A stretch of DNA of 64,000 nucleotides from an uncultured Bacilli bacterium (GCA_934096295.1 CAKOLL010000002.1:136966-200965); one strand, 5' to 3'; shown: positions 1 through 18,607, numbered from the stretch's first letter. Numbers and translations are program-made. The notes: generated by a model not told the origin, from the letters alone.

Positions 1-13
1 TAATGAAATTGAG

Positions 14-1012
14 GTGATTAATTTGAAAAAACAAGAATTAAATGAAAAAATTAATAATTATTTAAATAAAAATTATGATAATTTTGTATTTTTAATATCG
101 GGAAGAGCTACAATAGACTTAGCTATTAAAAATGCGATTGCTAATAATCCTAATTTAAAAAAAGCATATTTACCAAATTATATTTGTGATTCTATGGTTA
201 AACCATTTATTGATAATGGTATGATTGTTGAATTTTATGCAATAAATTTTGATGGTAATTGCTTTAATGTAAATACTAGTTCATTTGAAAATAAAGACAA
301 TATTATTGTTTTATATTGTGATTATTTTATTAGTTCAGAAAGAAATTATAAAATAATAACACAAAGTTTATCAAAAAACGCTATTCTTATTCATGATGTT
401 ACACATACATTATTTAGTGGAAATTTTCTAGATTATAGAGATGATTATTTAGTTTGTAGTATGAGAAAATGGTTCCCAATTGAGGATGGCGGTTTGTTTG
501 TTTGTAAAAATGAACTTACATTACATAGTTTTAAAAATGATTTAACTTATTTACTTTTCAAAGAAAAAGCTAAACAAGCTAAAGAACAATATTATGCCAA
601 TCCAAGTGATTATAATAAAAAAATATATGAAAGTTTGTCAGACCAAGCTGAGTCTGTTTTAAATGAAAACTATTCTTTGAATTTAATGTCTTTAAAAAAT
701 AGAAATTATTTAGATACAATTGATTTAGAGAAATATTTTCAAACAAAGAGGGAATTGTTTAATATGATAAAACAAAATTTATCTGAATATCAATTATTAG
801 CAGGAGCTAATGATATTAATTGTATATTTACCTTTCCTTTAGTAAATTTAAATAATAGAGATGAAATATTTAAAAAATTGAGAAATATTTTGATTAGGTG
901 TGCTGTAATGTGGGATTTTAACGATGATGAAATTTATAAAGAGTTTGTCGATAAAAGTATTTGTGTTGATATAAGTGAGAATACTATAATGCAATTAAGG
1001 AGGTATAGATAG
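14..1012 (+). CDS. PLP-dependent aminotransferase, DegT/DnrJ/EryC1-like fold (possibly 5'-partial at window edge; alternative TTG start at 23)
   Basis: 'FLISGRATIDLAIK...AYLPNYICDSMVKPF' matches the SGxxAL...P.fTF... block of DegT-family enzymes; 'CSMRKWFPIEDGG' fits the Schiff-base Lys region; N-terminal ~20 aa of a typical DegT seem missing so ORF may continue upstream of the window. Confidence 0.55.
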   Translation: MINLKKQELNEKINNYLNKNYDNFVFLISGRATIDLAIKNAIANNPNLKKAYLPNYICDSMVKPFIDNGMIVEFYAINFDGNCFNVNTSSFENKDNIIVLYCDYFISSERNYKIITQSLSKNAILIHDVTHTLFSGNFLDYRDDYLVCSMRKWFPIEDGGLFVCKNELTLHSFKNDLTYLLFKEKAKQAKEQYYANPSDYNKKIYESLSDQAESVLNENYSLNLMSLKNRNYLDTIDLEKYFQTKRELFNMIKQNLSEYQLLAGANDINCIFTFPLVNLNNRDEIFKKLRNILIRCAVMWDFNDDEIYKEFVDKSICVDISENTIMQLRRYR

Positions 1013-1013
1013 T

Positions 1014-1664
1014 ATGAAAAAAATATATTTGTTAAGTGGTCCAGGGACTAATGAGGGGTTTTCAGATGTTATTTCTAAAGAATTAAAAAAGGATTTGAAA
1101 GGAATGAAATCAATAACTTTCATTTCTTCATCACCTGCAAAACATGAAAAAAATATGAGTTTTGTTTATGGAAACGAGAAAATTACAGGTATGATTAATC
1201 ATTTGAAGTATTTTACAAATTTTGAAAAAGTAAATATAGCTGATGATGAAAATAGAGAACTAGATATTAATTCAGATATTATTTATTTACTGGGTGGAAA
1301 TTATGAAACTCAATTAAATTTTATTAAAGAAAATAAATTTGATGAAATACTTAAAAACTATGAAGGAGTTTTGCTTTGTACAAGTTGTGGAGCGATGAAT
1401 ATTGCAGAATGTGGTTATTATTCTAAAGATGATGATGTTGATGATAGTTTCTTTTATAATGGAATAGGGCTAACTAATATTACAATTGACCCACATTTTG
1501 ACATTAATAATTCTGTTCAAGTTAATGAAGCTAAAAAAATGTCTTTTAAACATGTTATTTATGGAGTTCCAAATTCTTCTTGTATAAAAATATGTAATAA
1601 AAAAATTGATATGATTGGAAAAATTTATGAATTTAATAATGGAAATATGATTGAACATAAATGA
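1014..1664 (+). CDS. peptidase S51 / type-1 glutamine-amidotransferase-like (dipeptidase E / cyanophycinase family)
   Basis: 'IYLLGGNYETQL' and 'GVLLCTSCGAMNIAE' resemble the GGNT...G(T/S)SAG nucleophile elbow of S51 peptidases; 2-bp gap from upstream gene. Confidence 0.5.
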   Translation: MKKIYLLSGPGTNEGFSDVISKELKKDLKGMKSITFISSSPAKHEKNMSFVYGNEKITGMINHLKYFTNFEKVNIADDENRELDINSDIIYLLGGNYETQLNFIKENKFDEILKNYEGVLLCTSCGAMNIAECGYYSKDDDVDDSFFYNGIGLTNITIDPHFDINNSVQVNEAKKMSFKHVIYGVPNSSCIKICNKKIDMIGKIYEFNNGNMIEHK

Positions 1665-1685
1665 AATGAAAGGAATATTTAATTT

Positions 1686-4028
1686 ATGATAAAATGGCTT
1701 GATGATGTTACAAATAAAATTATTGAGAACGCTGGTAATTCGCAGATTATAACTTGTCAATGTGGAATTTCTACCACGGGGGTCGCTCATATAGGTAATT
1801 TTAGAGAACCAATTATTACATATTTTGTTGCAGAAACATTAAAACAAAAAGGAAAAAAAGTTAGATTAGTTATGTCTTTTGATGATTTTGATAGATTTAA
1901 AAAAGTTCCTTATGGTGTACCTAGTGATTATGAAAAATATGTTGGAATGCCTACATGTTTTTTCCCAAGTCATATAAATTCAAGTATAAGTTATGCAAAG
2001 TTTTATGAAGATAAAATTATAGAAACTTTAAAAAGCTTGGATATTGATATGGAATATATTTATCAGTCAGAGAAGTATAAGGCTAAAGAATATTTAAGTG
2101 TCATTAAATCTGTTTTGGATCAAAAAGATGCTATATTTGATATAATATCAAAATATAAAACACAACAAATGACATATTATGATAAAAAACAATTTTTTCC
2201 AGTTAAAGTTTATTGTTCTTGTTGTCGAAAAGATAATACAACGATTATGGAATATTCTCAAGAAGAAAATTTAATTACTTATAAATGCTCTTGTGGTCAT
2301 ATGGAAACTGCTAGTATAGATAAATTAGATTTGAAATTGAAATTCAATGTAGAATGGCCTGCAAGATGGAATTATGAAAATGTAAATTTCGAACCGTGTG
2401 GAAAGGGGCATGCAGAAGAATTAGGTGTGTTAAATGTTTCAAAAGAAATAAATGAAAAAATTTATCATAAAAAGAATCCATGTATAGTTAAGTATGATTT
2501 TTTTAATTTAAAAGGTAATCAGGGAAGAATGAATAAAAATTCAAAAAATTTTATTGAAGTCAAGGACTTTTTAAACGTTATGCCTAAAGAAATGGTTTTG
2601 TATTATTTTATAGTTAATCCACCTAATAAGGAAATGTTTTTTTCTATCGAAGATGATATTCCAAAATTTTATGAAATGTTTGAAAAATGTGTTAATAATA
2701 ATTGTTTAGATTATGAAACTAAGAGTTTGTTAAAAATTGATTATAAAGAGGACTTAAAATTCTCAGATTTAATACGATATTTGCCAGTTGTAAACTTTGA
2801 TGTTGAAAATTTAAAAAAGATTCTTCAATTTAGTGAGACAAAGCATAATTTAGAAAAAATAACTTGTGCTATTAATTGGCTTAAATTTTATTCTAAAAAC
2901 AAATATTGGGTAATGAATGACAATATAAATTATGATTATTACAATACTCTGAGCAGTGAGAGAAAAAAAACACTAAGTTCTTTTATTAAATTAGCTAAAA
3001 AATATTCTAACTTTTTATCGTGGAAAGAATTTTTTGAAACATTTAAACAATATAATCCAGATTTAAAAATGTTTTATAAAGATTTTTATAGAATGATATT
3101 TGACTCTGAAACAGGAATACCAATTAAATCATTATTTGAATATTATGATATAGAAAAAATTATTAATTTAATACCTGTAGAAGAAAATATTAAAAATAAA
3201 AATCAAGTAGATGATACTGTAAGAATTATTCATTTATCTGATTTGCATTTTGATATTAATGATTCAAAAGAAATATTATCAAAAAAAATTCAAATGATAA
3301 CTGATTATCTAAAAAAAGGAAATTATGATAATTATTTGATTATAAGTGGAGATATAATATGTTTTTATAATAAAAAAGAAAATTTTGATATGGCTTATGA
3401 TTATTTAAGTTTTTTAGTTGACTCTTTACATATACCAGTTGAAAAAATACTTATTTGTACTGGAAATCATGAAATGATTAGTTTTGATAAATTCTTGAAT
3501 ACATATTTTGATAATTATAATATCTTTTTAAGAGAAAAATTACAAGATTTTAATGAATTTATGAAAAAACTTTGTGCATTTAATATTAATGAAAGTGAAG
3601 AACTGTATTATATGAATTTGGATCTACCTTTTAATACATTTGTAGTAAATTCATTGTTTGGAATTATAGATGGAAAAAAACAATTTTTCCAAAGTTCTGA
3701 ATTGATAGAAAGAGCTTTAAAAAAGGAAAAAATTAATAAAGATAAACTTGGGTTCGTAATATCTCATGCTCCATATGGATTTAACTCTAGTTTATTTGAC
3801 AATACAAATATTTTAAACTTTTTCAATTATAATATATGTGGGCATAATCATGAAAAAAGTATTATTTATAATGAAAATGGTCTTATTGATTTAGTTTCTG
3901 GTAGCAGTGATGGTTTAGTAGGAGATGAATATGATTTTAATTTATATGAATTAAAAAACGGTGTGTACGTAAAACGAATTTTTTGTAAGGATGATATAAC
4001 TACAGCTAGATTAAAAAGAATCAAATAA
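1686..4028 (+). CDS. divergent class-I lysyl-tRNA synthetase paralog fused to C-terminal calcineurin-like metallophosphoesterase
   Basis: N-terminal ~520 aa collinear with class-I LysRS (CGISTTGVAHIGNFRE, DDFDRFKKVP, zinc knuckle CSCCRK...CSCGH, EWPARW) but KMSKS degenerated to 'GRMNKNSKN'. C-terminal ~260 aa has MPE motifs 'IIHLSDLHFD', 'SGDII', 'CTGNHEM', 'CGHNHE'. Confidence 0.75.
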   Translation: MIKWLDDVTNKIIENAGNSQIITCQCGISTTGVAHIGNFREPIITYFVAETLKQKGKKVRLVMSFDDFDRFKKVPYGVPSDYEKYVGMPTCFFPSHINSSISYAKFYEDKIIETLKSLDIDMEYIYQSEKYKAKEYLSVIKSVLDQKDAIFDIISKYKTQQMTYYDKKQFFPVKVYCSCCRKDNTTIMEYSQEENLITYKCSCGHMETASIDKLDLKLKFNVEWPARWNYENVNFEPCGKGHAEELGVLNVSKEINEKIYHKKNPCIVKYDFFNLKGNQGRMNKNSKNFIEVKDFLNVMPKEMVLYYFIVNPPNKEMFFSIEDDIPKFYEMFEKCVNNNCLDYETKSLLKIDYKEDLKFSDLIRYLPVVNFDVENLKKILQFSETKHNLEKITCAINWLKFYSKNKYWVMNDNINYDYYNTLSSERKKTLSSFIKLAKKYSNFLSWKEFFETFKQYNPDLKMFYKDFYRMIFDSETGIPIKSLFEYYDIEKIINLIPVEENIKNKNQVDDTVRIIHLSDLHFDINDSKEILSKKIQMITDYLKKGNYDNYLIISGDIICFYNKKENFDMAYDYLSFLVDSLHIPVEKILICTGNHEMISFDKFLNTYFDNYNIFLREKLQDFNEFMKKLCAFNINESEELYYMNLDLPFNTFVVNSLFGIIDGKKQFFQSSELIERALKKEKINKDKLGFVISHAPYGFNSSLFDNTNILNFFNYNICGHNHEKSIIYNENGLIDLVSGSSDGLVGDEYDFNLYELKNGVYVKRIFCKDDITTARLKRIK

Positions 4029-4050
4029 TACAAATATTGTAGTATATGAC

Positions 4051-4079
4051 TTGCAAAATATATTTAGCAATGATATAAT
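4051..4079 (+). promoter_or_regulatory. sigma-A-type promoter for lysK (TTGCAA-17-TATAAT)
   Basis: ttgcaa aatatatttagcaatga tataat read directly. Confidence 0.5.
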
Positions 4080-4125
4080 ATGCGAAATTGATGGAAAATT
4101 AATTATTTTGAATGGGGGAATTATT

Positions 4126-5724
4126 ATGAATTGGGCTTTAGAAGAAGCAAAAAAATTAATTGAAAAGTATCCTGAAAAAGATACATTTGTAATTGCATCG
4201 GGGGTCAGTCCTTCGGGATATATACATATTGGAAATTTTAGAGAAATTGTTACAACGTTTTTTGTAGGTAAGGAATTAGAAAATTTAGGAAAAAAGGTTA
4301 GATTTATTTTGTCTTTTGATGATTTTGATAGATTTAGAAAAGTTCCTAATGGTATGCCAGAAAGTTATAGTAAGTATATAGGTATGCCATATACGAATAT
4401 ACCTAGTCCTTTTAGTAAAGACAAAACTTATGGAAAAGAACTTGAAGATATCTTTTTAGAAGAATTAAGTAGATTGGATATTTATCCAGAAATAATATAT
4501 CAAACTGAACAATATAAAAGTGGTAGATATGATAAAAAAATTATATTAGCTATGAATAAGAGAAAAGAAATTTTTGATATTATTTCAAAATTTAAAACGC
4601 AAGAATTTACTGTAGAGGATAAAAATAATTATTATCCAATAAGTTTATATTGTCAATGTTGTGGAAAAGATTCTACTACTATAGTAAATTATAATGAGAA
4701 AACTCATGAAGTTGAATATGAATGTGTATGTGGGAACCATAATATACAAAGAATAGAAAAAAGTGGAAATATTAAATTACAATGGAAAATAGATTGGCCT
4801 ATGAGATGGCAAGAAGAAGGTGTTATTTTTGAGCCGGGGGGTAGAGACCATTCTGCTGAAAATGGAAGTTATGCTGTTTCAAAAGTAATTTCAAAAGAGA
4901 TATTCGGATATGATGCGCCTTCATATATTGCATATGATTTCATAGGTATTAAAGGTGCTAATGGAAAAATGGCATCGTCAACAGGAAATGTATTAACTTT
5001 GACAGATTTATTAAGAGTTTATGATAAAAACATTGTTTTGTGGTTTTATGCTAAAAATAAACCAAACCATCAGTTTAATATAGCGCTTGATGAAGATGTT
5101 TTACGATATTATGCAGAATTTGATCGATTGGTAAAATCTTATTTTCAAGGAAAACTTGATGAAAATACAGCTAGCATAGTTTCATTGACAGGTGTGACAA
5201 AAAATTATACTAGTAATCCAGATTTTGGCAGTATTGCAAATTTTCTTCCGATGGTAAGTTATAACGAAAAAATGCTTGCTAATTTGTTATCTAAAGAAGA
5301 CATTGACTGTGAAAGTGTTTTGTTTAAAAAACGATTATTACAAGCTAAATGTTGGTTAGAAAAATACAATAATAGTAGAATCAATATATTAAATGAATTC
5401 AATCAAGATTTTTATGATAGTTTAAATGAAGAAGAAAAACAGTGGTTAAAAGATACTTTAGTGGTGTTGCAACAAAATTATAGTACAACTCAAGAATTAC
5501 AAAAAAGTTTGTATGCTGTTGTAAAAACTGGTGAAGAAGATTCTAAAATATTGAAAAGTAAACAAAAAAGGTATTTTCAAATAATTTATAATTTAATATT
5601 AGGAAAAGATAGTGGACCGAAAATGGGGTTATTATTATCAGCAATGAATTATGAAACGATAGAATCAAAATTACAAAAAAAACATGAATTAGTTCGTCAA
5701 AGAATAGATAAAAAGGATAATTAA
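4126..5724 (+). CDS. lysK: lysine--tRNA ligase, class I (canonical-looking)
   Basis: Near-collinear with archaeal/Borrelia-type LysRS-I: 'ASGVSPSGYIHIGNFRE', 'SFDDFDRFRKVP', zinc knuckle 'CQCCGK...CVCGN', 'KIDWPMRWQEEGVIFEPGGRDH', 'GKMASSTGN' (KMSKS). RBS GGGGGA before ATG 4126; ORF-track start 4051 probably too far upstream. Confidence 0.85.
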   Translation: MNWALEEAKKLIEKYPEKDTFVIASGVSPSGYIHIGNFREIVTTFFVGKELENLGKKVRFILSFDDFDRFRKVPNGMPESYSKYIGMPYTNIPSPFSKDKTYGKELEDIFLEELSRLDIYPEIIYQTEQYKSGRYDKKIILAMNKRKEIFDIISKFKTQEFTVEDKNNYYPISLYCQCCGKDSTTIVNYNEKTHEVEYECVCGNHNIQRIEKSGNIKLQWKIDWPMRWQEEGVIFEPGGRDHSAENGSYAVSKVISKEIFGYDAPSYIAYDFIGIKGANGKMASSTGNVLTLTDLLRVYDKNIVLWFYAKNKPNHQFNIALDEDVLRYYAEFDRLVKSYFQGKLDENTASIVSLTGVTKNYTSNPDFGSIANFLPMVSYNEKMLANLLSKEDIDCESVLFKKRLLQAKCWLEKYNNSRINILNEFNQDFYDSLNEEEKQWLKDTLVVLQQNYSTTQELQKSLYAVVKTGEEDSKILKSKQKRYFQIIYNLILGKDSGPKMGLLLSAMNYETIESKLQKKHELVRQRIDKKDN

Positions 5725-5726
5725 TA

Positions 5727-5763
5727 AAAAAGTAAAGAATGTAATTATTTGTTCTTTACTTTT
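5727..5763. terminator. bidirectional hairpin terminator between convergent lysK and XRE genes
   Basis: aaaaagtaaagaa-loop-ttctttactttt inverted repeat flanked by A/T runs. Confidence 0.55.
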
Positions 5764-5999
5764 TCTATTTTAATAGTATATCCGATTGGTCCAAGGATCC
5801 TTAATAGGCTTAGAATTGATGGAGAACAAGCTCCACATTCTATTCTAGCTATTTTTTCTCTTGAAACGCCAGAATATTTGGAAAATAAATCTTGTGTTAA
5901 GTTATTTTCTTTTCTAAAACTTATAAATTCCTTAATAAATATTTCATTTAATTCTTCTGGATTATAAGCAACCTCAATATAATTTTTATCATAGTCCAT
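5745..5999 (-). CDS. XRE-family helix-turn-helix transcriptional regulator
   Basis: 'LTQDLFSKYSGVSREKIARIECG...PSILSLLRI' classic HTH_3 pattern; divergent from AMP-ligase gene. Confidence 0.7.
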   Translation of the reverse strand: MDYDKNYIEVAYNPEELNEIFIKEFISFRKENNLTQDLFSKYSGVSREKIARIECGACSPSILSLLRILGPIGYTIKIEKVKNK

Positions 6000-6053
6000 A
6001 TAGTCTCACCACAATTATTGTATCAAATATGATACTAAAAGTCAAACATAGTG

Positions 6054-6082
6054 TTGTAAAACATTGCTAATTCTTGTATAAT
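6054..6082 (+). promoter_or_regulatory. sigma-A promoter (TTGTAA-17-TATAAT) for AMP-ligase gene; near-palindrome gtatcaaatatgatac at 6013-6028 may be XRE operator
   Basis: Consensus hexamers with 17-nt spacer read directly; 16-bp near-palindrome just upstream. Confidence 0.45.
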
Positions 6083-6101
6083 CAAAATTAGGTGAGGATT
6101 T

Positions 6102-7820
6102 ATGGAAAAATTTTATGACTATTATACGAAAGAAATGAAAGAAGATACATTACCGTCAGGTAATGAATATGACTTTTTACTTGAAAGAAACAAAAATCAT
6201 ATGAATGATACGGCGTTATCATTTGATACTAAGAAAATTTCATATGAAGAATTGCATGAAAGAATTGATGAATTTGCTCGTGCATTATATAAGAGAGGAA
6301 TAAGACAAGGTACTAGAGTTGGTATTGTAGTAGTTAATACCCCAGAATCTGTATATTTACTTTATGCTTTAAAAAAACTTGGAGCTCAAGTAATTGGGTT
6401 AAGTCCCCTTAATAATGAATATAAGATGCAAAGAGATATAGAAATGACAAAACCAGAATTTATCATTTCTGTAGATATGATGTATGGAAATTTCAAAAAT
6501 CCAGCAAAGAGTTTAAGTATAACACCAATACTTTATTCTCCATTAGAATCATTGGATAAAAATGGTTTGAAATTTCTTTATAATACGAAACAATTTATGG
6601 CTGGAAATAAAATCCTTAAAAAAGGTAATAATTTAATGAGTATTGTTAATGACGGGAAAGATTATGTTGATGTAAAATATCCTGAACATGTTAATGGTAC
6701 ATCAACAGATATTATGTTTACTGGAGGATCAAGTGGTGTTCATAAAGGTGTTGATTTAGATGGTGGTGCTTTAAATAGTGTTGTAAAAGCATTGGATTAT
6801 GTGTTAATACTAGAACCTGGAATGGTTCATCTAGGAAATATTCCATTTGGACATATGTGTTTTGGTAGATTAGTTCTTCATTATTCATTATGTAAAAATC
6901 TAGAATATGCTTTAACATTAAAAGCTATGCCAAAAGATTTTTATAGTGAACTTGTTAGAACACATGCAAATGGAGCAATGGGTGGTCCAGTTCATTGGGA
7001 AATATTAGCTCAAGATCCTAATTTAAGACAATGGACTTTGGAAAATTTAATACAACCTTTATCTGGTGGAGAAATGTTTAAACCACAAAAATTAAAAGAA
7101 GCAAATAAGGCTTTGGAATATGCTGGTTGTACTACTCCGATTGGAAATGGGTTAGGTTTAACAGAAATGTGGGCTCCAACTCATGTTTGTATGGGGGGAA
7201 AAAACACACCAGGAACTATTGGTTATCCAATTCCGTTTGTTAATTCAAAAATTGCTGATCCAAAAACTTTTGAAGATTTACCATTAGAAACTCCAGGAGT
7301 TTTGCTTGTAAATGGTCCTGGTATGATGCTTAGATATCATAATAATGAAGAAGAAACTAATGCAGTATTTGTATATGATGAAAATGGAGTTAAATGGTAT
7401 AATACTAAAGATGTTGCTGTTAAACATGCTAATGGTGAATATGAATTTGTAGGTCGTGTTAAAAGAAATTTTGTTTCTGGGGTTGATAATATTTATCCAG
7501 AACAAATTGAACAATTGCTTATTCAAATACCTGAAATTAGAGAAGTAATAGTTACATCAATTGCAGATGATAATGAACAATTCTTACCAAGTTATCATGT
7601 AAGTTTAAATGATTTTAATTGCGATAGAAAAGTATTAGAAAATAAAATGTTTGCTTTAATAGAAAAAACATTAGGTACTAGTGCTCTTCCTGGATATATT
7701 GAATATTATGAACAAGCACTTCCAAGAACTGATAATGGTAAACTTGATCCAAAAGCAATGGAAGCTAAAGATAAAGAAAGAATAGAAAATAAAGATTTAG
7801 TTAGAACAAGAGTTAGATAA
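6102..7820 (+). CDS. AMP-dependent synthetase/ligase (adenylate-forming enzyme, ANL superfamily)
   Basis: 'FTGGSSGVHKGV' corresponds to the (T/S)SGTTGxPKGV AMP-binding motif; size 572 aa. Confidence 0.7.
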   Translation: MEKFYDYYTKEMKEDTLPSGNEYDFLLERNKNHMNDTALSFDTKKISYEELHERIDEFARALYKRGIRQGTRVGIVVVNTPESVYLLYALKKLGAQVIGLSPLNNEYKMQRDIEMTKPEFIISVDMMYGNFKNPAKSLSITPILYSPLESLDKNGLKFLYNTKQFMAGNKILKKGNNLMSIVNDGKDYVDVKYPEHVNGTSTDIMFTGGSSGVHKGVDLDGGALNSVVKALDYVLILEPGMVHLGNIPFGHMCFGRLVLHYSLCKNLEYALTLKAMPKDFYSELVRTHANGAMGGPVHWEILAQDPNLRQWTLENLIQPLSGGEMFKPQKLKEANKALEYAGCTTPIGNGLGLTEMWAPTHVCMGGKNTPGTIGYPIPFVNSKIADPKTFEDLPLETPGVLLVNGPGMMLRYHNNEEETNAVFVYDENGVKWYNTKDVAVKHANGEYEFVGRVKRNFVSGVDNIYPEQIEQLLIQIPEIREVIVTSIADDNEQFLPSYHVSLNDFNCDRKVLENKMFALIEKTLGTSALPGYIEYYEQALPRTDNGKLDPKAMEAKDKERIENKDLVRTRVR

Positions 7821-7902
7821 AGCTACTGAAAAGTGGCTTTTCTTTTGCTTGAAAAAGAATGTTGGTTGTGATATCATTAAGTAAGAGTAGGAAGTGGTAT
7901 TC

Positions 7903-9732
7903 ATGGGATTTTATTTTTCAATAAGTGCATTGATTGTTATTATATTATTTACGTTTAATTTCTTATCAAAAGAAAGAGTAAATAATATTGAAACAAAAAT
8001 TTATAAGTATTTATTATTTTTAACATTATTTGGGCTATCTATGGACATAACTACTTGTGTTTTGTATAGAATGGGAATAAATATAAATGGTTTTTTATAT
8101 GCTTTAGGATCTAAATTGGTATTTGTATATTTTGTCTTATGGCTTTTGCTTTTTGCATATTATATAAAATGTATTAGCCTACCTTCTAGTGAAAATTATA
8201 AAAGTAAGATGATGAATACTTTTTATATGTTTGCTTTGTTTTTAATATTTATTGTACCTTTTATATTAATTTTACCAGTGGATTTTAAATTAGAAGGAGA
8301 TGTAATTGTTCCAAATGGACTTCCTGTTTTTATAACATATGGAGTTTGTTTAATTTTAATTGTTTATTCTGTTTATATTGCTATAAGATATCATAAAAAT
8401 ATTGAGGGAAAAAAATTAAGACCTTTGTATATTTTTTGTGTTTTAATGTTGTCAAATTTTATTGTTCAAAGTATGTTTCCTTCAGCTTTTTTAATTAATT
8501 ATTTATTATCATTAGTAGTTATAATAATGTATTTTACAATTGAAAATCCAGATGTTAAATTAATTAATCAATTAAATGAAGCTAAAACGCAAGCGGAAAA
8601 AGCAAACTTAGCTAAAACAGAGTTTTTATCAAGCATGTCTCATGAAATTAGAACACCTCTTAATGCAATCGTAGGTTTCAGTAATATGTTACTTGATGAT
8701 AAAAATTTGCCTGATAGTGCTAAAGAAGAAGTTAATGATATAGTAATGGCTTCAGATAATTTATTAGAAATAGTTAATGGTATTTTGGATATATCGAAGA
8801 TTGAGGCTGGTAAATTAGAAATTGTTAATACGGAATATGATTTTAATAAAGTTACAACAGAGTTAATTGCCCTTACTCGGGGAAGACTTGGGGATAAACC
8901 GATAGAGTTTATTACAAAAATTGATGAGTCAATTCCTCAGGTGTTATATGGAGATGCATCAAGGTTAAAACAAATATGTGTAAATATTTTAACTAATGCT
9001 GTTAAATATACTAAAGAAGGAAGTATTACTTTTAGTATTAATTCAGTTGTTAAAAATAATGTATGTAGATTGATTATTTCAGTTGAAGATACAGGAATAG
9101 GAATTAAACAAGAAAACTTAAGTAAGTTATTTAATAAGTTTGAAAGATTGGATTTAAAAGATAATGTTACAATAGAAGGTACAGGTTTAGGACTTGCTAT
9201 AACTAAGAAACTTGTTGATATGATGAATGGAAAGATAGTTGTGCAAAGTGTATTTGGAAAAGGGTCTAAGTTTACAGTATCAATAGATCAAAGAATAGTT
9301 AAAAATCCAACTATAAAAGTTGAAGCAATAGATACAACCCATGAAAAGATTGAAGTTAAAAATAAAACTGTTTTAGTTGTAGATGATAACAAAATAAATC
9401 TTAAAGTAGCTGAGAGATTATTACAAACTTATGGTGTTGATGTGGAATGTGTAGAAAGTGGGTTTATTTGTATTGATAACTTGAAAAGTGGTAAGAAATA
9501 TGATTTAATATTAATGGATGATATGATGCCAAAAATGAGTGGTGTAGAAACATTACAAAAGATAAAAGTTGAAATACCAGAATTTGATATTCCGGTGATA
9601 GCATTAACAGCGAATGCATTAACAGGAATGAGAGAAAAGTATTTGGCAGATGGATTTAACGATTATCTAGCTAAACCAATTAACAAAGATGAATTAAATA
9701 GAGTTATAAATGAATATTTAAATAAGGAGTGA
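7903..9732 (+). CDS. hybrid sensor histidine kinase (multi-TM sensor + HisKA + HATPase + C-terminal receiver)
   Basis: ~6 hydrophobic helices N-terminal; H-box '[11 protein letters not shown]'; G-boxes 'DTGIGI', 'GTGLGLAI'; C-terminal REC '[11 protein letters not shown]...[13 protein letters not shown]'. Confidence 0.85.
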
Positions 9733-9736
9733 TATC

Positions 9737-10519
9737 ATGAAAGATGTAAATATTTTAATTAACAATGGAGCTAATATTAAAAAAGCTTTAGAATTATTCG
9801 GAGATATGGAAACATATGATGCAACACTTGAAACTTTTTTGCAAGAAGTACCTGGGAAACTAGAAAAAATTAAGGCTTGTAAAGAAATTGGAGATATGGC
9901 AAACTATGCAATACTTGTGCATTCTCTAAAAAGTGATGCAAGATACTTTGGGTTTGAGACTCTCGGAGAACTTGCATATGATCATGAGTTAAAGAGTAAA
10001 GCAAACGATATGTATTATGTAAGTGAACATTTTAATGAACTTATGACTGAAGCAAATAGAGTTGTTAATTTAGTAAAAAAATATATGGGTGTTGGCATTG
10101 TAGATGAATCTTCATATAAAGAACCTGTAAAAATGAGTGATAAAGCTATTTTAGTAGTAGATGATTCAAATATAATAAGAAATTTCATTTTAAAAATCCT
10201 TGATGATTCATTTGATGTTATTTCAGCTACTGATGGTAAAGAAGCTATTGATATTTTAGAATCTGAAGAAAAAAGAAAAAATATTAAGGCTGTACTTCTT
10301 GATTTAAATATGCCAAATGTTAATGGCTTTGAAGTTTTGGATTATTACAAGAGTAAAGATTTATTTAGAAGTATCCCAATTTCTATTATTACTGGGGTGG
10401 ATGATAAAGAATCTATTGATAAAGCTTTTAAGTATCCAATTGTGGATATACTACTTAAACCATTTAATGAAAGAGATGTAAAAAAGATTCTTGAAAAAAC
10501 AATAAACAGTAAATTATAG
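9737..10519 (+). CDS. Hpt phosphotransfer domain fused to a stand-alone receiver domain
   Basis: 'ILVHSLKSDARYFG' = Hpt HxxKG motif; REC 'ILVVDDSNIIRNF...AVLLDLNMPNVNG...K'; no output domain. Confidence 0.75.
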   Translation: MKDVNILINNGANIKKALELFGDMETYDATLETFLQEVPGKLEKIKACKEIGDMANYAILVHSLKSDARYFGFETLGELAYDHELKSKANDMYYVSEHFNELMTEANRVVNLVKKYMGVGIVDESSYKEPVKMSDKAILVVDDSNIIRNFILKILDDSFDVISATDGKEAIDILESEEKRKNIKAVLLDLNMPNVNGFEVLDYYKSKDLFRSIPISIITGVDDKESIDKAFKYPIVDILLKPFNERDVKKILEKTINSKL

Positions 10520-11222: not shown

Positions 11223-12494
11223 GTGAAAAAGCGTTATATAATATCAATTTTGGTGTTTTTAGTATTAAGTGTATTAATAAGTAATAATATTGCTAAGTCA
11301 TATATAGAAAAAAATAATAGTTTAAATAAAAAGTCAAATTCTAATAAAATATCGATTATGTTAGAAACAGATGAAGCTACTGGAGAATATAAAATGTCAA
11401 CAGAAAATAGTTGGCCAACCGAAGGATATATTTTCAATGCCGAATTATCAAAATGCGAAAATAATTCAATGATATCTTGGGATAATGATAAAAATGCTGT
11501 AATATTTCAAGGCCGAGTAACAGATAAGTGCTATATATATTTTGATAAATACGTAGCACCAACAATGACCCTTGTTGAATATGTTTTGGCACAATATACT
11601 GGTGTGCAAGGAGAAAACAATATGTATTATCATACTTCAAGTTTAGCAAATGGTGCTAGTGACAATTCTTATAGATATGCTGGGTCTAGTGATAGTGTAA
11701 ATAATTTTGTATGTTATGGTTCAACTGAAACTCCATGTCCAACGGATAATTTATATCGCATCATCGGAGTATTCGGCGATAATTACCATGGTGTGAGTGG
11801 ACAACAATTAGTAAAATTAATCAAATATGATTATGCAAATACTAATTTACTTGGAACTAATGGTACTTATAACAATTCCATGAATGCCGGAACAACTTAT
11901 AAAGGAAGTTTATCGACAATCTATACATATCGTTGGAATAATTATGCTAGTTCAAATACATGGAGTGCAAGCTTGCTAAATAAAACAAATTTAAATACGA
12001 ACTTCATAAATAATATAGGTGATATGTGGGCAAATAAAATTGCAACTATAGCATGGAAAGTCGGAGGTAATACAGTTGAAAAAATAAGAGAAGCAAAATC
12101 ATCACTAGCATATACCAATGAACTAATAAGTCCCGCAGCAAGTACTACCGAGAGTGCCAAAATAGGACTAATGTATGTAACTGATTATTATTATGCCGCA
12201 AGCTCAAGTGCATGGACATTAATAGGTTTTAATTCCGACTTAACAAATGATTATAGAAAAGCCATAAGTAATAATTGGATGTATATGGGCTGGAATGAAT
12301 GGGCAATAACTCGTCGTTCAGACATTGCTAATTCAACTTATTATGCATTCGAGATACATACTGATGGTAGCATTTGGGTTATGAATGTGACCAACATTTA
12401 CGATGCAATCAGGCCATCTTTCTTTCTATATTCTTCAATTATGTATAAATCAGGAACAGGAACCATGAGTGATCCAATAATTTTGGAAATATAA
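11223..12494 (+). CDS. secreted/surface protein, paralog family copy A (unknown function)
   Basis: N-terminal hydrophobic signal/anchor; shares blocks with 17051 and 49624 ORFs: SWPTEGY, DNSYRYAG, CxGxxxxPCPTDNLYRIIG, LIKYDYA, TWSxSLLNKTNLNTNFINNIG, WKVGGNT, AKIGLMYVxDY, NNWMYMG, AIRPSFF, KSGTGTxSDPI. Confidence 0.7.
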   Translation: MKKRYIISILVFLVLSVLISNNIAKSYIEKNNSLNKKSNSNKISIMLETDEATGEYKMSTENSWPTEGYIFNAELSKCENNSMISWDNDKNAVIFQGRVTDKCYIYFDKYVAPTMTLVEYVLAQYTGVQGENNMYYHTSSLANGASDNSYRYAGSSDSVNNFVCYGSTETPCPTDNLYRIIGVFGDNYHGVSGQQLVKLIKYDYANTNLLGTNGTYNNSMNAGTTYKGSLSTIYTYRWNNYASSNTWSASLLNKTNLNTNFINNIGDMWANKIATIAWKVGGNTVEKIREAKSSLAYTNELISPAASTTESAKIGLMYVTDYYYAASSSAWTLIGFNSDLTNDYRKAISNNWMYMGWNEWAITRRSDIANSTYYAFEIHTDGSIWVMNVTNIYDAIRPSFFLYSSIMYKSGTGTMSDPIILEI

Positions 12495-13586: not shown

Positions 13587-14408
13587 ATGAAAATATCAAT
13601 AAAAGATAATATAGATTTATATAGAAAAGTAGATGAATTAACTAATTTAAATACAGTACCTAAAGATTATTATAGAGATTTTAAAATATTAGATACATAT
13701 GTAAGAATATTTAATGAAGGCAATAAAAAAATTTTGATTTATGTTCATGGTGGTGGTTTTGTATCGGGAAATTTAAATACTCACGCTAATCTTTGTTATA
13801 AGTTAGCTAAAGATTTGAATGTATGTGTTATATCAATTGATTATAAATTAGCTCCAGAATATAAATTTCCTTATCAAATAAATGAGATAAATAAAGTTTG
13901 TGAAGAAATATTTAAATTAAGTAGTGATGTAGCTATAATGGGGGATTCTGCCGGGGCTAACTTAGCATTTTCAGTGGCAACTGTTAATAGAAAATTAAAA
14001 TTTAAAGAAATTATTATGGCATATCCCACAACTCAGACTGATTATACTAGTAAGACAAAATTTAAATCTGTAATAGAAAATAGTGGTAAAACGTTACTTA
14101 CTAAAGAATCTTTACGAGATTACTTTTCTTTATATTTAAAAAGTGATAAAGATTATAAGGATAAAAGAGTTAATTTACTTCGTAATGATTGGTTATTTGG
14201 AATGCCTTTAGTTACTATAATTACAGGAACTCATGATCCACTTCATGATGAGGGTTTTGCTTTAAAAGAAAAGTTAGATAGATTTTTAGTTAAAACTAGA
14301 TATTTAGATTTGATTGATGCACCGCATGGTTTTTTAACAAATATGTTAGAACATAAATATACAAATCAAGTAATAGAATTTTTAAAGGGAAGTGATTTTT
14401 TTGAGTAA
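13587..14408 (+). CDS. alpha/beta hydrolase fold-3 esterase/lipase (HSL-like)
   Basis: 'VHGGGFVSG' oxyanion HGGG motif and 'GDSAGANLA' nucleophile elbow. Confidence 0.7.
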   Translation: MKISIKDNIDLYRKVDELTNLNTVPKDYYRDFKILDTYVRIFNEGNKKILIYVHGGGFVSGNLNTHANLCYKLAKDLNVCVISIDYKLAPEYKFPYQINEINKVCEEIFKLSSDVAIMGDSAGANLAFSVATVNRKLKFKEIIMAYPTTQTDYTSKTKFKSVIENSGKTLLTKESLRDYFSLYLKSDKDYKDKRVNLLRNDWLFGMPLVTIITGTHDPLHDEGFALKEKLDRFLVKTRYLDLIDAPHGFLTNMLEHKYTNQVIEFLKGSDFFE

Positions 14409-15624
14409 ATGGTATCGTTTAGATAATGCTGCAAAAATCTTTCCTCCATCTAAAAGTAAGAAAGATCCAAAGACATTTAGATTTAGTGTAACATTATATG
14501 AAGAAGTAAAAGTGGATGTATTAAATAAAGCTTTAAAAGAAACTTTGGAAGAGTATCCAATATTTAAATCTATTTTAAAAAAGGGAATATTTTGGTATTA
14601 TCTTGAAGAAGTAGATAAAAAATATGAAGTAAAAATGGAAGATAAAAGTCCATGTTCTAAAATAAATCATAATAATTTATTTGAGGTATCAGTTTATAAA
14701 AATAGAATTAATTTAGAGGTTGATCATGCCCTAACTGATGGAACTGGTACACTTACGTTCTTAAAAAGTTTGGTAGCTAACTACTTAAATAAATTATATA
14801 ATATTAAAAATAATGAAGTAATAAATGAAGGTAGTATAAAAGAAATAAAAGAAGATGCTTTTAAAAAATATAAAGATAGTAATTTTAAGAAAGTATTAAA
14901 AAGTAAGAAAGCATATAGAATTAAAGATGAAAAATATATAGATAATAGACTTAAAGTAATCGAAGGTATTGTAAATATTGATGATATTAAAGTAAAAGCT
15001 AAAGAATTAGATTTAACAATTACAGAATATTTAACTAGTGTTTTAATTATGGCTATAGGTAGTGTTAAAAATAAAAGTAAAAAACCAATAGTTATTACAA
15101 TACCAGTTAATTTAAGAAAGTATTATCCAACCTACACAGTAAGAAATTTTTTTAGTGTAGTAAATATAGATTATATATATAATAATGATTCATTTGAGGA
15201 TATAGCAATGTATGTAAAGAAAATATTTAAAGAAAAGTTAGATAAAGAAAATATAAAAGATAAAATGAATAGTATGATAAAGTTAGAAGATATATTTATA
15301 GTTAGATTAATACCTGTTTTTATAAAAGACTTTGTTTTAAAAATAGCATGTAATATTGAAAATAAATATCAAACTATGACTTTATCTAATATAGGTATTA
15401 TTAATATGCCGGAAGTTTATAATAAATATATAGATTATTTTAGTGTATTTACAAGTACATCAAAAATACAAATGTGTATGTGTTCTTATAAAGATAAAAT
15501 GGTTATTAGTTTTTCATCTAAGTTTGTAAATAGTGAAATAGAAAAATATTTCTTTAAGTTTTTAAGTAATGGTGGAATAGATGTAATAATAAATACTAAT
15601 GATTATGGTGATTATGATGAATAA
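14392..15624 (+). CDS. hypothetical protein with condensation/acyltransferase-like HxxxDG motif
   Basis: 'EVDHALTDGTG' resembles the HHxxxDG acyltransferase motif; otherwise unrecognised. Confidence 0.3.
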   Translation: MIFLSKWYRLDNAAKIFPPSKSKKDPKTFRFSVTLYEEVKVDVLNKALKETLEEYPIFKSILKKGIFWYYLEEVDKKYEVKMEDKSPCSKINHNNLFEVSVYKNRINLEVDHALTDGTGTLTFLKSLVANYLNKLYNIKNNEVINEGSIKEIKEDAFKKYKDSNFKKVLKSKKAYRIKDEKYIDNRLKVIEGIVNIDDIKVKAKELDLTITEYLTSVLIMAIGSVKNKSKKPIVITIPVNLRKYYPTYTVRNFFSVVNIDYIYNNDSFEDIAMYVKKIFKEKLDKENIKDKMNSMIKLEDIFIVRLIPVFIKDFVLKIACNIENKYQTMTLSNIGIINMPEVYNKYIDYFSVFTSTSKIQMCMCSYKDKMVISFSSKFVNSEIEKYFFKFLSNGGIDVIINTNDYGDYDE

Positions 15625-17050: not shown

Positions 17051-18607
17051 ATGAATAAAAAAACAAGAATAATTATTTTATCGATACTTGCTGTGTTAAT
17101 TGTTATTGCTTTATCAGTGGGATTAACTACAGCTTTTATGAAACCTGTAGAACAAGGTGGTAATTTAACTGAAGTTGCATTATCTAGTTGTGCAAAGATT
17201 AAGTTAACTAGTACTAGTTCTGTTAATCTTTCTAATTCATATCCAATGAGTAGAAATAAAGGATTGCAAACAACTCCTTATTCTTTTACTGTTACTAGTT
17301 ATTGTGATACATATGTAGGTTTTAGTTTATATATTGCTACATTAAGTACAAATACATTAGATGCTTCAAATATTCACTATATTTTAACATATAAAGGTAG
17401 TAAAGAAACTATAGTAGAAGGTATATTATCTAGTGCTATGAATGGAGTAAGTGATTTTAGTGATTCAGAAAAAACTGAATTAAATACTGGGTTAAAAGGC
17501 ACTTATGGTAGTATTTATAAAATTCATAATGAATCTGTAGCATTAAAAGGTAGTAAAGAATATGATTTATATTTGTATGTTGATGAAAATGTAACAAATA
17601 CTACGATGGGAAAAACATTTAGTGCAGGTGTTGCAGTTAAATCTTATGATAGAGAAAAAATTGGTTTAGAAATATGTAATAGTGGTCAAAATTTAAAAGA
17701 ATGTGTTATTTCATATGCAAATTTAGGTAGTAATGTTTCAAAAATATATTATCATGATTCAACACTAACAAATGGAGCAGGGGACAATAGCTATAGATAT
17801 GCAGGACCAAGTGATGAAGTAAATAATTTTGTGTGTTTTGGAACAAATGAGAGTCCATGTCCAACAGATAATTTATATCGTATTATCGGAGTAATAGATG
17901 ATAAAGTGAAATTAATCAAATATGATTATGCAACAAGTACATTACTTGGAACAGATGGTGATTATTCACAAAATGCCGAAGAAGCAGGAATGCCAACAAA
18001 TCATTATAAAGGAACAAAAGAAATGTCAGACATCGGAGTATATTATTGGAATTATAAGGCTACAAACAAAGCTACAAATACATGGAGTACAAGTTTATTA
18101 AATAAAACAAATTTAAATACAAACTTTATAAATAATATTGGAACAGAATGGTCAAATAAGATAGCAACAACGATATGGAAAGTAGGAGGAAATACAAATG
18201 CAAAAATAAGAAATGTAGTTCCATCAGTAGCATACCAAAATGAAATAGTAAATCCGGTTCCAGGCCAATATTCAACAACAGGAGAAACAGAATATGAAGC
18301 CAAAATAGGATTAATGTATGTATCGGATTATGGATTTGCAGCAAGTCCAGAATCATGGACAACAATAATGGGTGATTATCATAAAGTTGTAAATAATAAT
18401 TGGATGTACATGGGAGCTTGGGAATGGACTATTTCCCGTCGTGCGGACCGTTCGGACATTGCTTTCGTTGTAGGCCGTGGTGGTTCCGTGAGCGACGACT
18501 TCGTGGACATCGGCATCTTTGCGGTTCGGTCGTCCTTCAATCTCGAGTCTTCTGTGACTTATGTCTCTGGGTCTGGACTTAGATTTGATCCGATTGTAAT
18601 AAATTAA
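17051..18607 (+). CDS. secreted/surface protein, paralog family copy B (longer N-terminal region; GC-rich recoded 3' end)
   Basis: Signal/anchor helix; same conserved blocks as copy A (DNSYRYAG, PCPTDNLYRIIG, LIKYDYA, TWSTSLLNKTNLNTNFINNIG, WKVGGNT, AKIGLMYVSDYGFAAS, NNNWMYMG). Confidence 0.7.
   Translation: MNKKTRIIILSILAVLIVIALSVGLTTAFMKPVEQGGNLTEVALSSCAKIKLTSTSSVNLSNSYPMSRNKGLQTTPYSFTVTSYCDTYVGFSLYIATLSTNTLDASNIHYILTYKGSKETIVEGILSSAMNGVSDFSDSEKTELNTGLKGTYGSIYKIHNESVALKGSKEYDLYLYVDENVTNTTMGKTFSAGVAVKSYDREKIGLEICNSGQNLKECVISYANLGSNVSKIYYHDSTLTNGAGDNSYRYAGPSDEVNNFVCFGTNESPCPTDNLYRIIGVIDDKVKLIKYDYATSTLLGTDGDYSQNAEEAGMPTNHYKGTKEMSDIGVYYWNYKATNKATNTWSTSLLNKTNLNTNFINNIGTEWSNKIATTIWKVGGNTNAKIRNVVPSVAYQNEIVNPVPGQYSTTGETEYEAKIGLMYVSDYGFAASPESWTTIMGDYHKVVNNNWMYMGAWEWTISRRADRSDIAFVVGRGGSVSDDFVDIGIFAVRSSFNLESSVTYVSGSGLRFDPIVIN
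18432..18582 (+). other. ~150-bp GC-rich (~55% GC) compositional island inside the 3' end of paralog B CDS
   Basis: tcccgtcgtgcggaccgttcggacattgctttcgttgtaggccgtggtggttccgtgagcgacgacttcgtggacatcggcatctttgcggttcggtcgtcc... uses CGT/GCG/GGC/GAC codons absent from surrounding AT-rich code; still in frame and still homologous to tails of copies A and C. Confidence 0.85.

Follow-up and report, generated by a model that had tools for sequence, protein, structure and literature searches.

A widespread gene module with an aminoacyl-tRNA synthetase paralog, present in an uncultured Bacilli bacterium as a class I LysRS-metallophosphoesterase fusion

Positions 1-4028 of a 64,000-nucleotide stretch of DNA (the window) from an uncultured Bacilli bacterium (GCA_934096295.1, CAKOLL010000002.1:136966-200965) make up the 3' half of an operon whose first genes lie upstream of base 1. 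The operon carries a module composed of a nucleotidyltransferase (NTase), an aldo/keto reductase (AKR), a radical S-adenosylmethionine (rSAM) protein similar to spore photoproduct lyase (SPL) and PA0069, an S51 peptidase, and a paralog of an aminoacyl-tRNA synthetase (aaRS). This module is widespread, and no prior description of it was found in the literature searched. In the window organism it is extended by a DegT-like pyridoxal phosphate (PLP) enzyme, and the aaRS paralog is of the class I lysyl-tRNA synthetase (LysRS-I) type and fused to a metallophosphoesterase (MPE) domain. It is very likely that the module exists with these boundaries. Judged by its gene content, it may be a lysine-conjugating small-molecule pathway, a reading to which we give a probability of roughly 0.45. 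The features of the window that carry or adjoin the module are as follows.

1-17, plus strand: end and stop codon of the rSAM gene (the open reading frame (ORF) is 7133-8332 of metagenome contig L001; window base 14 corresponds to L001 base 8329, at 100% identity)
14-1012, plus strand: DegT-like fold-type-I PLP-dependent enzyme (ORF1), 332 aa from GTG 14; the start called on the contigs is base 23, which gives 329 aa
1014-1664, plus strand: S51-family peptidase, 216 aa (Pfam PF03575)
1686-3170, plus strand: class I LysRS paralog domain, residues 1-495 of the 780-aa fusion (TIGR00467)
3222-4028, plus strand: MPE domain, residues 513-780 of the same fusion (PF00149)
4051-4079, plus strand: promoter-like site TTGCAA-17-TATAAT with TG, in the 97-nt gap 5' of lysK (consensus match only)
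4126-5724, plus strand: lysK, canonical class I lysyl-tRNA synthetase, 532 aa (TIGR00467)

The genes at 14-1012, 1014-1664, and 1686-4028 are separated by 1 and 21 nt, and lysK follows the fusion gene after 97 nt if its start is ATG 4126; a Shine-Dalgarno sequence is also present in this last gap. The GC content of the region is about 25%. An earlier sequence-only reading of this DNA had drawn the same ORFs and the same gaps of 21 and 97 nt, but had set the first gap at 2 nt. It had also placed the left boundary of the cluster at base 14 and had seen no substrate-defining enzyme. Neither view could be kept, as the operon extends upstream (NTase-AKR, rSAM, and probably Rel), with the NTase-AKR and rSAM genes located just outside the window. 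The full order was taken from human-gut metagenome contigs, many of which carry an identical fusion protein (among them L001 and L003, from the same species): Rel, NTase-AKR fusion, SPL-like rSAM protein, DegT-like PLP enzyme, S51 peptidase, and LysRS-MPE fusion, followed by lysK. Gaps between the operon genes on these contigs are 0-22 nt.

Of the proteins encoded upstream of the window, NTase-AKR is a 487-aa fusion of a Pol-beta-type nucleotidyltransferase, with a GS...DxD motif, and an aldo/keto reductase. The rSAM protein (399 aa) contains CxxxCxxC, and the pattern C-TFQ-C-AY-C is invariant among 28 homologs. Its score against Pfam Radical_SAM is 19.4 bits, under the cut-off of 29.5, and its NCBIfam matches to the PA0069/Rv2578c 'DNA repair photolyase' type are weak. 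Rel is probably an operon member. It has 478 aa with HD, RelA/SpoT, and TGS domains (L001 4229-5665), and its gene lies 11 nt from the next module gene. This short Rel is without the usual C-terminal regulatory half, and the same short form is found in the loci L007, L009, L093, and L095 described below. Just 5' of Rel, at 1-3817 of L001, are genes for three GNAT acetyltransferases, a HAD phosphatase, and two further S51 peptidases, one of them 77% identical to the module S51 protein; these may extend the system or serve as immunity genes.

Sequence searches gave no PDB match for the rSAM protein, ORF1, or the MPE domain. ORF1 had been called a PLP aminotransferase; the fold match and the invariant lysine support a PLP enzyme, but membership of a sequence family does not, since neither Pfam nor NCBIfam gave a match even at E <= 1. 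The ORF1 family consists of only 26 proteins, and K152 (in S-x-R-K-W-F) and D128 are invariant across 25 sequences. With an AlphaFold (AF2) model of pLDDT 85, the top 50 Foldseek matches were mostly DegT/DnrJ/EryC1 sugar aminotransferases (7e-11 to 5e-9; CalS13 at 7e-11, WbpE, WecE, KabA), and a profile search against the PDB gave weak matches to the same family (7n63, 4e-4). The modelled structure thus supports ORF1 as a predicted PLP enzyme with the fold, although not the sequence family, of DegT/DnrJ/EryC1 (PF01041). The nearest outgroup of ORF1 belongs to a surface-glycan locus and has ATP-grasp and FemAB-like genes as neighbours. The S51 peptidase matches PF03575 (47.4 bits against a cut-off of 23.9, 2.5e-12), and in the gut loci its gene adjoins the aaRS-like one. 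The expected nucleophile motif GxSAG reads TSCGA here, so that the serine is kept in a variant context.

The LysRS-MPE protein combines tRNA-synt_1f (1.5e-84) and Metallophos (2.5e-11) in a single chain according to Pfam. Its LysRS domain scores 258 bits with TIGR00467 over residues 3-489 (cut-off 147.55) and 284 bits with PF01921, and it can be aligned with the Pyrococcus horikoshii LysRS structure (1IRX) over residues 1-335. Fold and domain order over residues 3-489 are those of canonical LysRS-I (TIGR00467; 1IRX; B. cereus LysRS1). The paralog retains HIGN and four Zn cysteines, and its invariant residues E41, W224, H242, and Y270 align with residues that we take to form the lysine pocket of 1IRX. 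It differs from the canonical enzymes in a KMSKS-type loop that reads GRMNKNS throughout the paralog clade (GKM(A/S)SS in canonical proteins, KMSGS in 1IRX), in the change of EPGGRDH to EPCGKGH, in an 11-residue deletion in the C-terminal domain, in the added phosphodiesterase, and in its separate clade. Paralogs from Lactococcus lactis and Bacillus thuringiensis read HIGKLRD, and the KMSKS lysine is lost in environmental paralogs. In a neighbour-joining tree the gut paralog clade branches outside all canonical Firmicute LysRS-I, and a recent in-situ duplication of lysK was therefore rejected as its origin. The adjoining lysK scores 396 bits with TIGR00467, carries the motifs HIGN, EPGGRDH, and GKMASS, and is 64-78% identical to the lysK adjoining the module or an alternative cassette in other lineages. 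Because this canonical gene adjoins and the paralog branches outside canonical Firmicute LysRS-I, the paralog was not assigned as the LysRS of the cell.

The MPE domain (PF00149, residues 513-723, 44.8 bits against a cut-off of 21.5) contains the metal motifs HLSDLH, SGD, GNHE, SH, and GHNH. Across nine family members DxH, GD, and GNH are invariant except for one DLY, and the last histidine is absent in three of the nine (GHKF, GHKN). The AF2 model (pLDDT 85) matched YydB (9a6c_B, 8e-13, TM 0.67), GpdQ (4e-9), Rv0805 (3e-8), and purple acid phosphatases in Foldseek. The domain is thus predicted to be a phosphodiesterase or phosphatase; it resembles YydB/GpdQ-type metallophosphodiesterases in fold and metal-binding motifs, but differs from them in having no sequence-level PDB match. 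The fusion itself is rare. Its family has about 15 clusters at 90% identity, all metagenomic; 1.84 billion 50%-clusters yielded only two further full-length members, and one clear relative appeared among the matches listed from 185,579 species genomes. A known defence system was rejected, as a PADLOC scan of seven proteins other than Rel, six from the module plus the AMP-binding (ANL) ligase encoded further downstream, gave no match and the NCBIfam match of the MPE domain to DS9_1, an anti-phage phosphoesterase, was ten-fold under its cut-off (40.6 bits against 420). Rel gave only a weak PADLOC match, to a candidate model.

The module recurs, reshuffled, in six gut Firmicute lineages, with homologs that are 40-60% identical to the window set. 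Module and neighbour genes were compared across loci with a tblastn table, and the loci (numbered with L) are arranged as follows.

L007 (fusion 56% identical): window order, with the PLP gene split and S51 flanking the fusion on both sides; lysK after
L009 (fusion 49% identical): window order; lysK after
L011/L013 ('uncultured Clostridia'; fusion 45% identical): lysK - PLP - S51 - NTase - AKR - rSAM - fusion
L095 (unfused paralog): Rel - S51 - NTase - AKR - rSAM - paralog - S51, without MPE, PLP gene, or lysK
L108 (Lachnospiraceae metagenome-assembled genome, MAG): NTase - rSAM - AKR - LysRS-I-like - separate MPE gene
L093 2386-7969 (Bacilli MAG GCA_017410525.1): alternative cassette in the slot between rel and lysK

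The earlier grouping of PLP enzyme, S51 peptidase, LysRS paralog, and lysK is supported, as these genes form a conserved neighbourhood with the look of an amino-acid-conjugating pathway. When gene order is compared in relatives, genes 1-4 of the eight originally grouped together (14-10519) stay linked and genes 5-8 do not. In L011/L013 the NTase and AKR are unfused and Rel is missing. The MPE occurs as a separate gene in L. lactis and in L108, where it adjoins the paralog, and this supports a functional link. About 0.7 kb 3' of the separate MPE gene of L108, at 7517-7682 on the minus strand, lies a Clostridiales-1 sRNA (Rfam RF01699, 128 bits). The alternative cassette of L093 contains a class-II-LysRS/EpmA-like paralog of 386 aa (lysS 7e-13, EpmA 2.5e-9), a B12-type rSAM protein, and a homolog of the SPL-like rSAM protein of the module (BLASTP 2e-8), together with a HAD phosphatase, a methyltransferase, and an S51 peptidase.

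The module also occurs in cultivable Firmicutes, with further partners.

Lactococcus lactis (L098): Rgg, ATP-grasp - PLP-like - MPE - 394-aa protein - LysRS-I-like - NTase - AKR - rSAM - MFS exporter - lysS
Enterococcus (L101): NTase, rSAM, AKR, S51, ATP-grasp, MFS, thymidylate-kinase-like gene, ANL ligase
Bacillus thuringiensis (L109/L110): tRNA-Lys - T-box - canonical LysRS-I - rSAM - ATP-grasp - HD - divergent LysRS-I paralog - NTase - AKR - ATP-grasp

An HD-domain gene occupies the place of the MPE in B. thuringiensis, and the locus lies beside resolvase and integrase genes. The L. lactis cluster is patchy at the strain level, with remnants decayed by insertion sequences (IS): in the chromosomes of L102 and L104 a truncated Rgg gene, an IS transposase, and an MFS fragment take the place of the full cluster between Rgg and lysS. 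The 13.7-kb Lactococcus contig L099 is a circular permutation of [Rgg - cluster - lysS] relative to L098, which points either to amplification in tandem or to a circle of which the housekeeping lysS is part. A plasmid or phage origin was rejected: the L. lactis cluster had no PLSDB match, the B. thuringiensis cluster was matched only via its tRNA-Lys and one 75%-identical T-box/lysK stretch, and the rSAM protein had no plasmid match.

The SPL-like rSAM family has more than 200 members, and rSAM/AKR fusion proteins exist (P0219, P0226, P0253). A metagenome scan with the rSAM alignment gave 65 loci, of which 19 extend 3.5 kb or more to both sides of the rSAM gene. At these well-flanked loci the partners were AKR (18/19), an aaRS-like gene (16/19), NTase (15/19), and S51 (13/19). 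The aaRS-like partner was LysRS-I-like in some loci and similar to the catalytic domain of AlaRS in others; many environmental loci carry one or two such AlaRS-like genes, of 340-372 aa. In L131 (7755-13040) and about 20 similar environmental loci, two of them (372 and 340 aa) replace the LysRS-like gene. The exchange of the synthetase-like partner, while the rest of the module is kept, points to a common step in which an amino acid, usually lysine, is activated and ligated.

A genuine LysRS, of either class, adjoins the module in at least five contexts. It is class I lysK in five gut lineages, class II in L. lactis and L119, a second canonical-like LysRS-I in L166, and LysRS-I in B. thuringiensis. 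Since this linkage recurs across hosts and synthetase classes, chance is an unlikely cause; target protection, supply of Lys-tRNA, or co-regulation could each account for it. The neighbour in L. lactis is the housekeeping lysS, its exact protein being the LysS of complete chromosomes. The usual context there is Rgg-lysS, and in cluster-bearing strains the cluster is inserted between the two; an extra resistance copy was rejected on these grounds. In B. thuringiensis the canonical LysRS-I is accompanied by a T-box leader (111 bits in L109) with tRNA-Lys(UUU) directly 5', the three together at 6870-9311 of L109/L110. This LysRS-I gene is module-specific, occurring on only 6 contigs, and the idea that it is the common lysK of the B. 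cereus group was therefore rejected. It would be a third LysRS gene in a group known for lysS and lysK, and both B. thuringiensis proteins carry the NCBI name 'lysine--tRNA ligase'. At the gathering threshold, Rfam found two tRNAs only in the whole window, with no T-box or lysine riboswitch at lysK, and no dedicated tRNA or riboswitch was found near the module in the window or the gut loci.

Taken as a lysine-conjugating pathway, the module would work as follows. The NTase, reductase, rSAM, and PLP enzymes would supply an acceptor that resembles an amino sugar or a nucleoside. The LysRS-like domain would bind L-lysine and ATP and form lysyl-adenylate, and the lysine would then be passed to this acceptor instead of, or as well as, to tRNA-Lys. 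The fused phosphodiesterase could remove a phosphate or nucleotidyl handle, and the S51 peptidase might hydrolyse the lysyl amide, whether for maturation or for self-protection. The reason for the linkage of the neighbouring lysK may be that lysyl-tRNA charging is affected by the product or pathway, in which case lysK could be a protected target copy or a source of Lys-tRNA. That the paralog handles lysine is probable; a small-molecule acceptor, as opposed to RNA or protein, falls slightly short of even odds. This pathway is favoured because the Firmicute variants contain exporters, extra ligases, and an Rgg regulator, because the cluster has a patchy strain distribution and decays in L. lactis, because the nearest relatives of the PLP enzyme have a glycan-pathway context, and because the synthetase-like partners are exchanged.

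Several observations weigh against a lysine-conjugating pathway. The C-terminal helical domain, which serves the anticodon in canonical LysRS-I, is retained in the paralog (within TIGR00467 residues 3-489), and according to PMC2034488 class I LysRS requires tRNA to activate the amino acid. The KMSKS loop is changed in the window protein and lost in environmental paralogs, so that ATP-dependent activation of the canonical kind is not assured from sequence. Moreover, the gut-clade clusters have no exporter, and environmental modules are flanked by housekeeping genes (RecA, FtsW, YceG), which is unusual for a secondary-metabolite cluster. The adjacency of lysK in the gut clade could also reflect local synteny of translation genes, as rel lies nearby and, in L009, a gene of the TyrRS/TrpRS family.

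Known systems offer partial parallels. MshC is a CysRS paralog of mycothiol biosynthesis that ligates Cys to GlcN-Ins. The module resembles that pathway in having a class I aaRS paralog together with a phosphatase step, which we take mycothiol biosynthesis to include as well, in the acetyltransferases nearby (the three GNAT genes upstream in L001), and, by analogy, in the proposed formation of an aminoacyl-adenylate followed by transfer to an amino-sugar-type acceptor. It differs in that the parent synthetase is LysRS-I, that the paralog is fused to a metallophosphodiesterase, and that the NTase, AKR, SPL-like rSAM protein, and S51 peptidase have no mycothiol counterpart. Antibiotic clusters also contain aaRS-like enzymes and resistant aaRS copies, as for mupirocin and IleRS, albomycin and SerRS, and indolmycin and TrpRS. 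Similar to these, several unrelated hosts carry a genuine LysRS gene in linkage with the module, and the LysRS-I of B. thuringiensis is, in the manner of T-box spare synthetases, module-specific, T-box controlled, and accompanied by tRNA-Lys; the gene linked in L. lactis, however, is the housekeeping lysS and not an extra copy. Puromycin-type pathways comprise an oxidoreductase, a DegT-like aminotransferase, phosphatases, an amino-acid ligase, an N-acetyltransferase, a hydrolase, and an MFS exporter. At the level of enzyme class, module variants match these with a reductase, a DegT-like PLP enzyme, phosphohydrolases (MPE, HAD, HD, NUDIX), an amino-acid ligase, GNATs, S51, and an MFS exporter, but the rSAM protein and the Pol-beta NTase have no puromycin counterpart. 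To our knowledge, no class I LysRS paralog has an assigned function. The literature searched likewise described no functional class I LysRS paralog, no aaRS-metallophosphoesterase fusion, and no such gene combination.

It is conceivable, if doubtful, that the module makes aminoacyl-nucleoside or aminoacyl-aminosugar antimetabolites that mimic the 3' end of an aminoacylated tRNA or an aminoacyl-adenylate. The amino acid would then be set by the synthetase paralog, whether class I LysRS-like, class II LysRS-like, or AlaRS-like, and the linked genuine LysRS, with its own T-box and tRNA-Lys in B. thuringiensis, would serve as producer protection. If true, this would be a new antimetabolite route, with a range that takes in human-gut Firmicutes, dairy lactococci, and uncultured groundwater bacteria.

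The main rival to a lysine-conjugating pathway is a tRNA-directed system, which we consider unlikely. Here the LysRS-like domain would recognise tRNA-Lys and either lysinylate a modified nucleoside or deliver the partner enzymes; the rSAM, AKR, and PLP enzymes would build a base modification, and the phosphodiesterase and NTase would heal or remodel RNA ends. GluQRS, which attaches glutamate to queuosine, provides an analogy. Such a system would explain why the paralog has kept the full LysRS-I architecture, including its C-terminal helical domain, and it agrees with the tRNA-dependent activation by LysRS-I described in PMC2034488. It would also suit an rSAM protein of the spore-photoproduct-lyase or 'DNA repair photolyase' type, the position of YydB as closest MPE fold match alongside the weak anti-phage phosphoesterase match in NCBIfam, the housekeeping-gene context in environmental genomes, and the tRNA-Lys gene within the B. 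thuringiensis locus, while a swap between Lys-type and Ala-type partners could retarget it to another tRNA. The AlaRS-like partners, however, consist of the catalytic domain only (340-372 aa), RNA modification offers no evident task for the S51 peptidase, and no tRNA gene lies near the module in the gut clade. The MFS exporters, ATP-grasp and ANL ligases, Rgg, and DegT-like enzyme of the Firmicute versions fit small-molecule chemistry better.

The other explanations account for less of the module. It is distinctly improbable that the fusion is a second functional LysRS isoform for stress or stationary phase, co-expressed with Rel in the stringent response, whose phosphodiesterase domain degrades by-products such as Ap4A or lysyl-adenylate-derived nucleotides. 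A TIGR00467 score above the cut-off (258 against 147.55 bits) would be expected of such an isoform, Rel lies 11 nt 5' of the next operon gene and is syntenic in five lineages, and the Ap4A-hydrolysing ApaH and PrpE are metallophosphoesterases; a precedent is the ancillary stationary-phase LysRS1 of B. cereus, of unclear function (PMC2916919). It would nevertheless leave the conserved rSAM, AKR, NTase, PLP, and S51 partners unexplained, and it has to contend with a KMSSS loop altered throughout the clade, with a canonical lysK directly adjoining, with modules that are without Rel (L011/L013, L108, L. lactis), and with MPE fold matches of the GpdQ/YydB type, not ApaH. A protein modification is very unlikely. 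The paralog would lysylate a translation factor or another protein, as in the lysylation of EF-P by EpmA/EpmB, and the rSAM, PLP, and reductase enzymes would remodel the lysine. EpmA is a class II LysRS paralog that acts with an rSAM aminomutase, EF-P modification in B. subtilis involves reductase and PLP enzymes, and the paralog of the L093 cassette is itself class-II-LysRS/EpmA-like. On the other side, no efp or other candidate target gene was found in the loci examined, the rSAM protein is SPL-like and not KamA/EpmB-like, and the AlaRS-like variants, exporters, and ATP-grasp ligases do not fit. Finally, the sequence-only reading had treated all eight genes at 14-10519 as one tailoring or signalling system, with the ANL ligase as a second activating enzyme and the kinase, Hpt-REC protein, and XRE as regulators. 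The genes are adjacent in the window, and an ANL and kinase pair is found in the vicinity of the module in two other loci (L007 and L009) and of the alternative cassette in L093. A single system of this extent is highly improbable, given that the right-hand genes have separate promoter-like and terminator-like signals, that the ANL and kinase genes flank the module from its other end in L007 and are absent from L011/L013, L095, L108, and L. lactis, that the pair persists in L093 without the LysRS-MPE module, and that in L003 the ligase is replaced by a 668-aa version of 21.6% identity next to a module that is 100% identical.

Conserved across very distant bacteria with an exchangeable synthetase partner, the module amounts to a natural experiment that points to amino-acid ligation. 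As L. lactis, Enterococcus, and B. thuringiensis hosts are cultivable, its product and chemistry are directly testable, and it could reveal a new antimetabolite from common gut and food bacteria. If the product disturbs lysyl-tRNA charging, this would give Firmicutes a reason to carry spare LysRS genes under T-box control. The role of the spare LysRS in these bacteria has been described as unclear (PMC2916919).

The genes to the right of lysK look like ordinary neighbouring transcription units outside the module (5745-10519). They and their signals are listed here.

5723-5769, no strand given: AT-rich hairpin that probably terminates transcription in both directions, from lysK and from the convergent XRE gene (folding energy)
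5745-5999, minus strand: small XRE/HTH_3 regulator (Pfam HTH_3, 23.7 bits)
6054-6082, plus strand: promoter-like site TTGTAA-17-TATAAT 5' of the ligase (consensus match)
6102-7820, plus strand: ANL (AMP-binding) ligase (Pfam AMP-binding)
7819-7840: terminator-like site 3' of the ligase
7849-7877: promoter-like site of the hybrid kinase (consensus match)
7894-9732, plus strand: multi-transmembrane hybrid histidine kinase (HisKA, HATPase_c, REC); start 7903 on contigs
9737-10519, plus strand: Hpt-REC phosphorelay protein, downstream partner of the kinase (Hpt 27.9 bits, REC 71 bits)

For these genes and for the S51, LysRS-MPE, and LysRS-I proteins, the earlier domain calls (XRE, AMP-ligase, hybrid histidine kinase, and Hpt-REC among them) agree with Pfam and NCBIfam. 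The XRE gene with a hairpin after lysK, described earlier as convergent, is indeed on the minus strand, and the hairpin folds with -13.4 kcal/mol (z = -4.68 against shuffles). Among the loci compared, XRE was found only in L001 and L003. The consensus promoter claimed before the ligase is present as a sequence, but such matches occur at chance level in the AT-rich DNA of the window (98 observed against 88 expected). The promoter-like sites are therefore weak indications, which agree with the comparative evidence.

The kinase (HisKA, HATPase_c, and REC) and its partner (Hpt and REC) have Pfam scores above all cut-offs, and by sequence 7894-10519 is classed as an ordinary phosphorelay of the hybrid-kinase type that stands apart from the module. 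The kinase is syntenic with the ANL gene in L007, L009, and L093, and the pair of ANL ligase and multi-transmembrane hybrid kinase (with Hpt/REC) is conserved across L001, L003, L007, L009, and L093. The ligase is highly divergent across these lineages (21-28% identity) and is exchanged within one species, in which Hpt-REC stays 99.6% identical; ligase and kinase may be a diversifying pair for signal synthesis and sensing. Downstream of this region, three ORFs of 410-518 aa (11223-12494, 14392-15624, and 17051-18607) have no Pfam match, and the remaining window is an ordinary Firmicute chromosome with genes for SpoIVB, Obg, PPDK, MutS, DnaE, and PolC.

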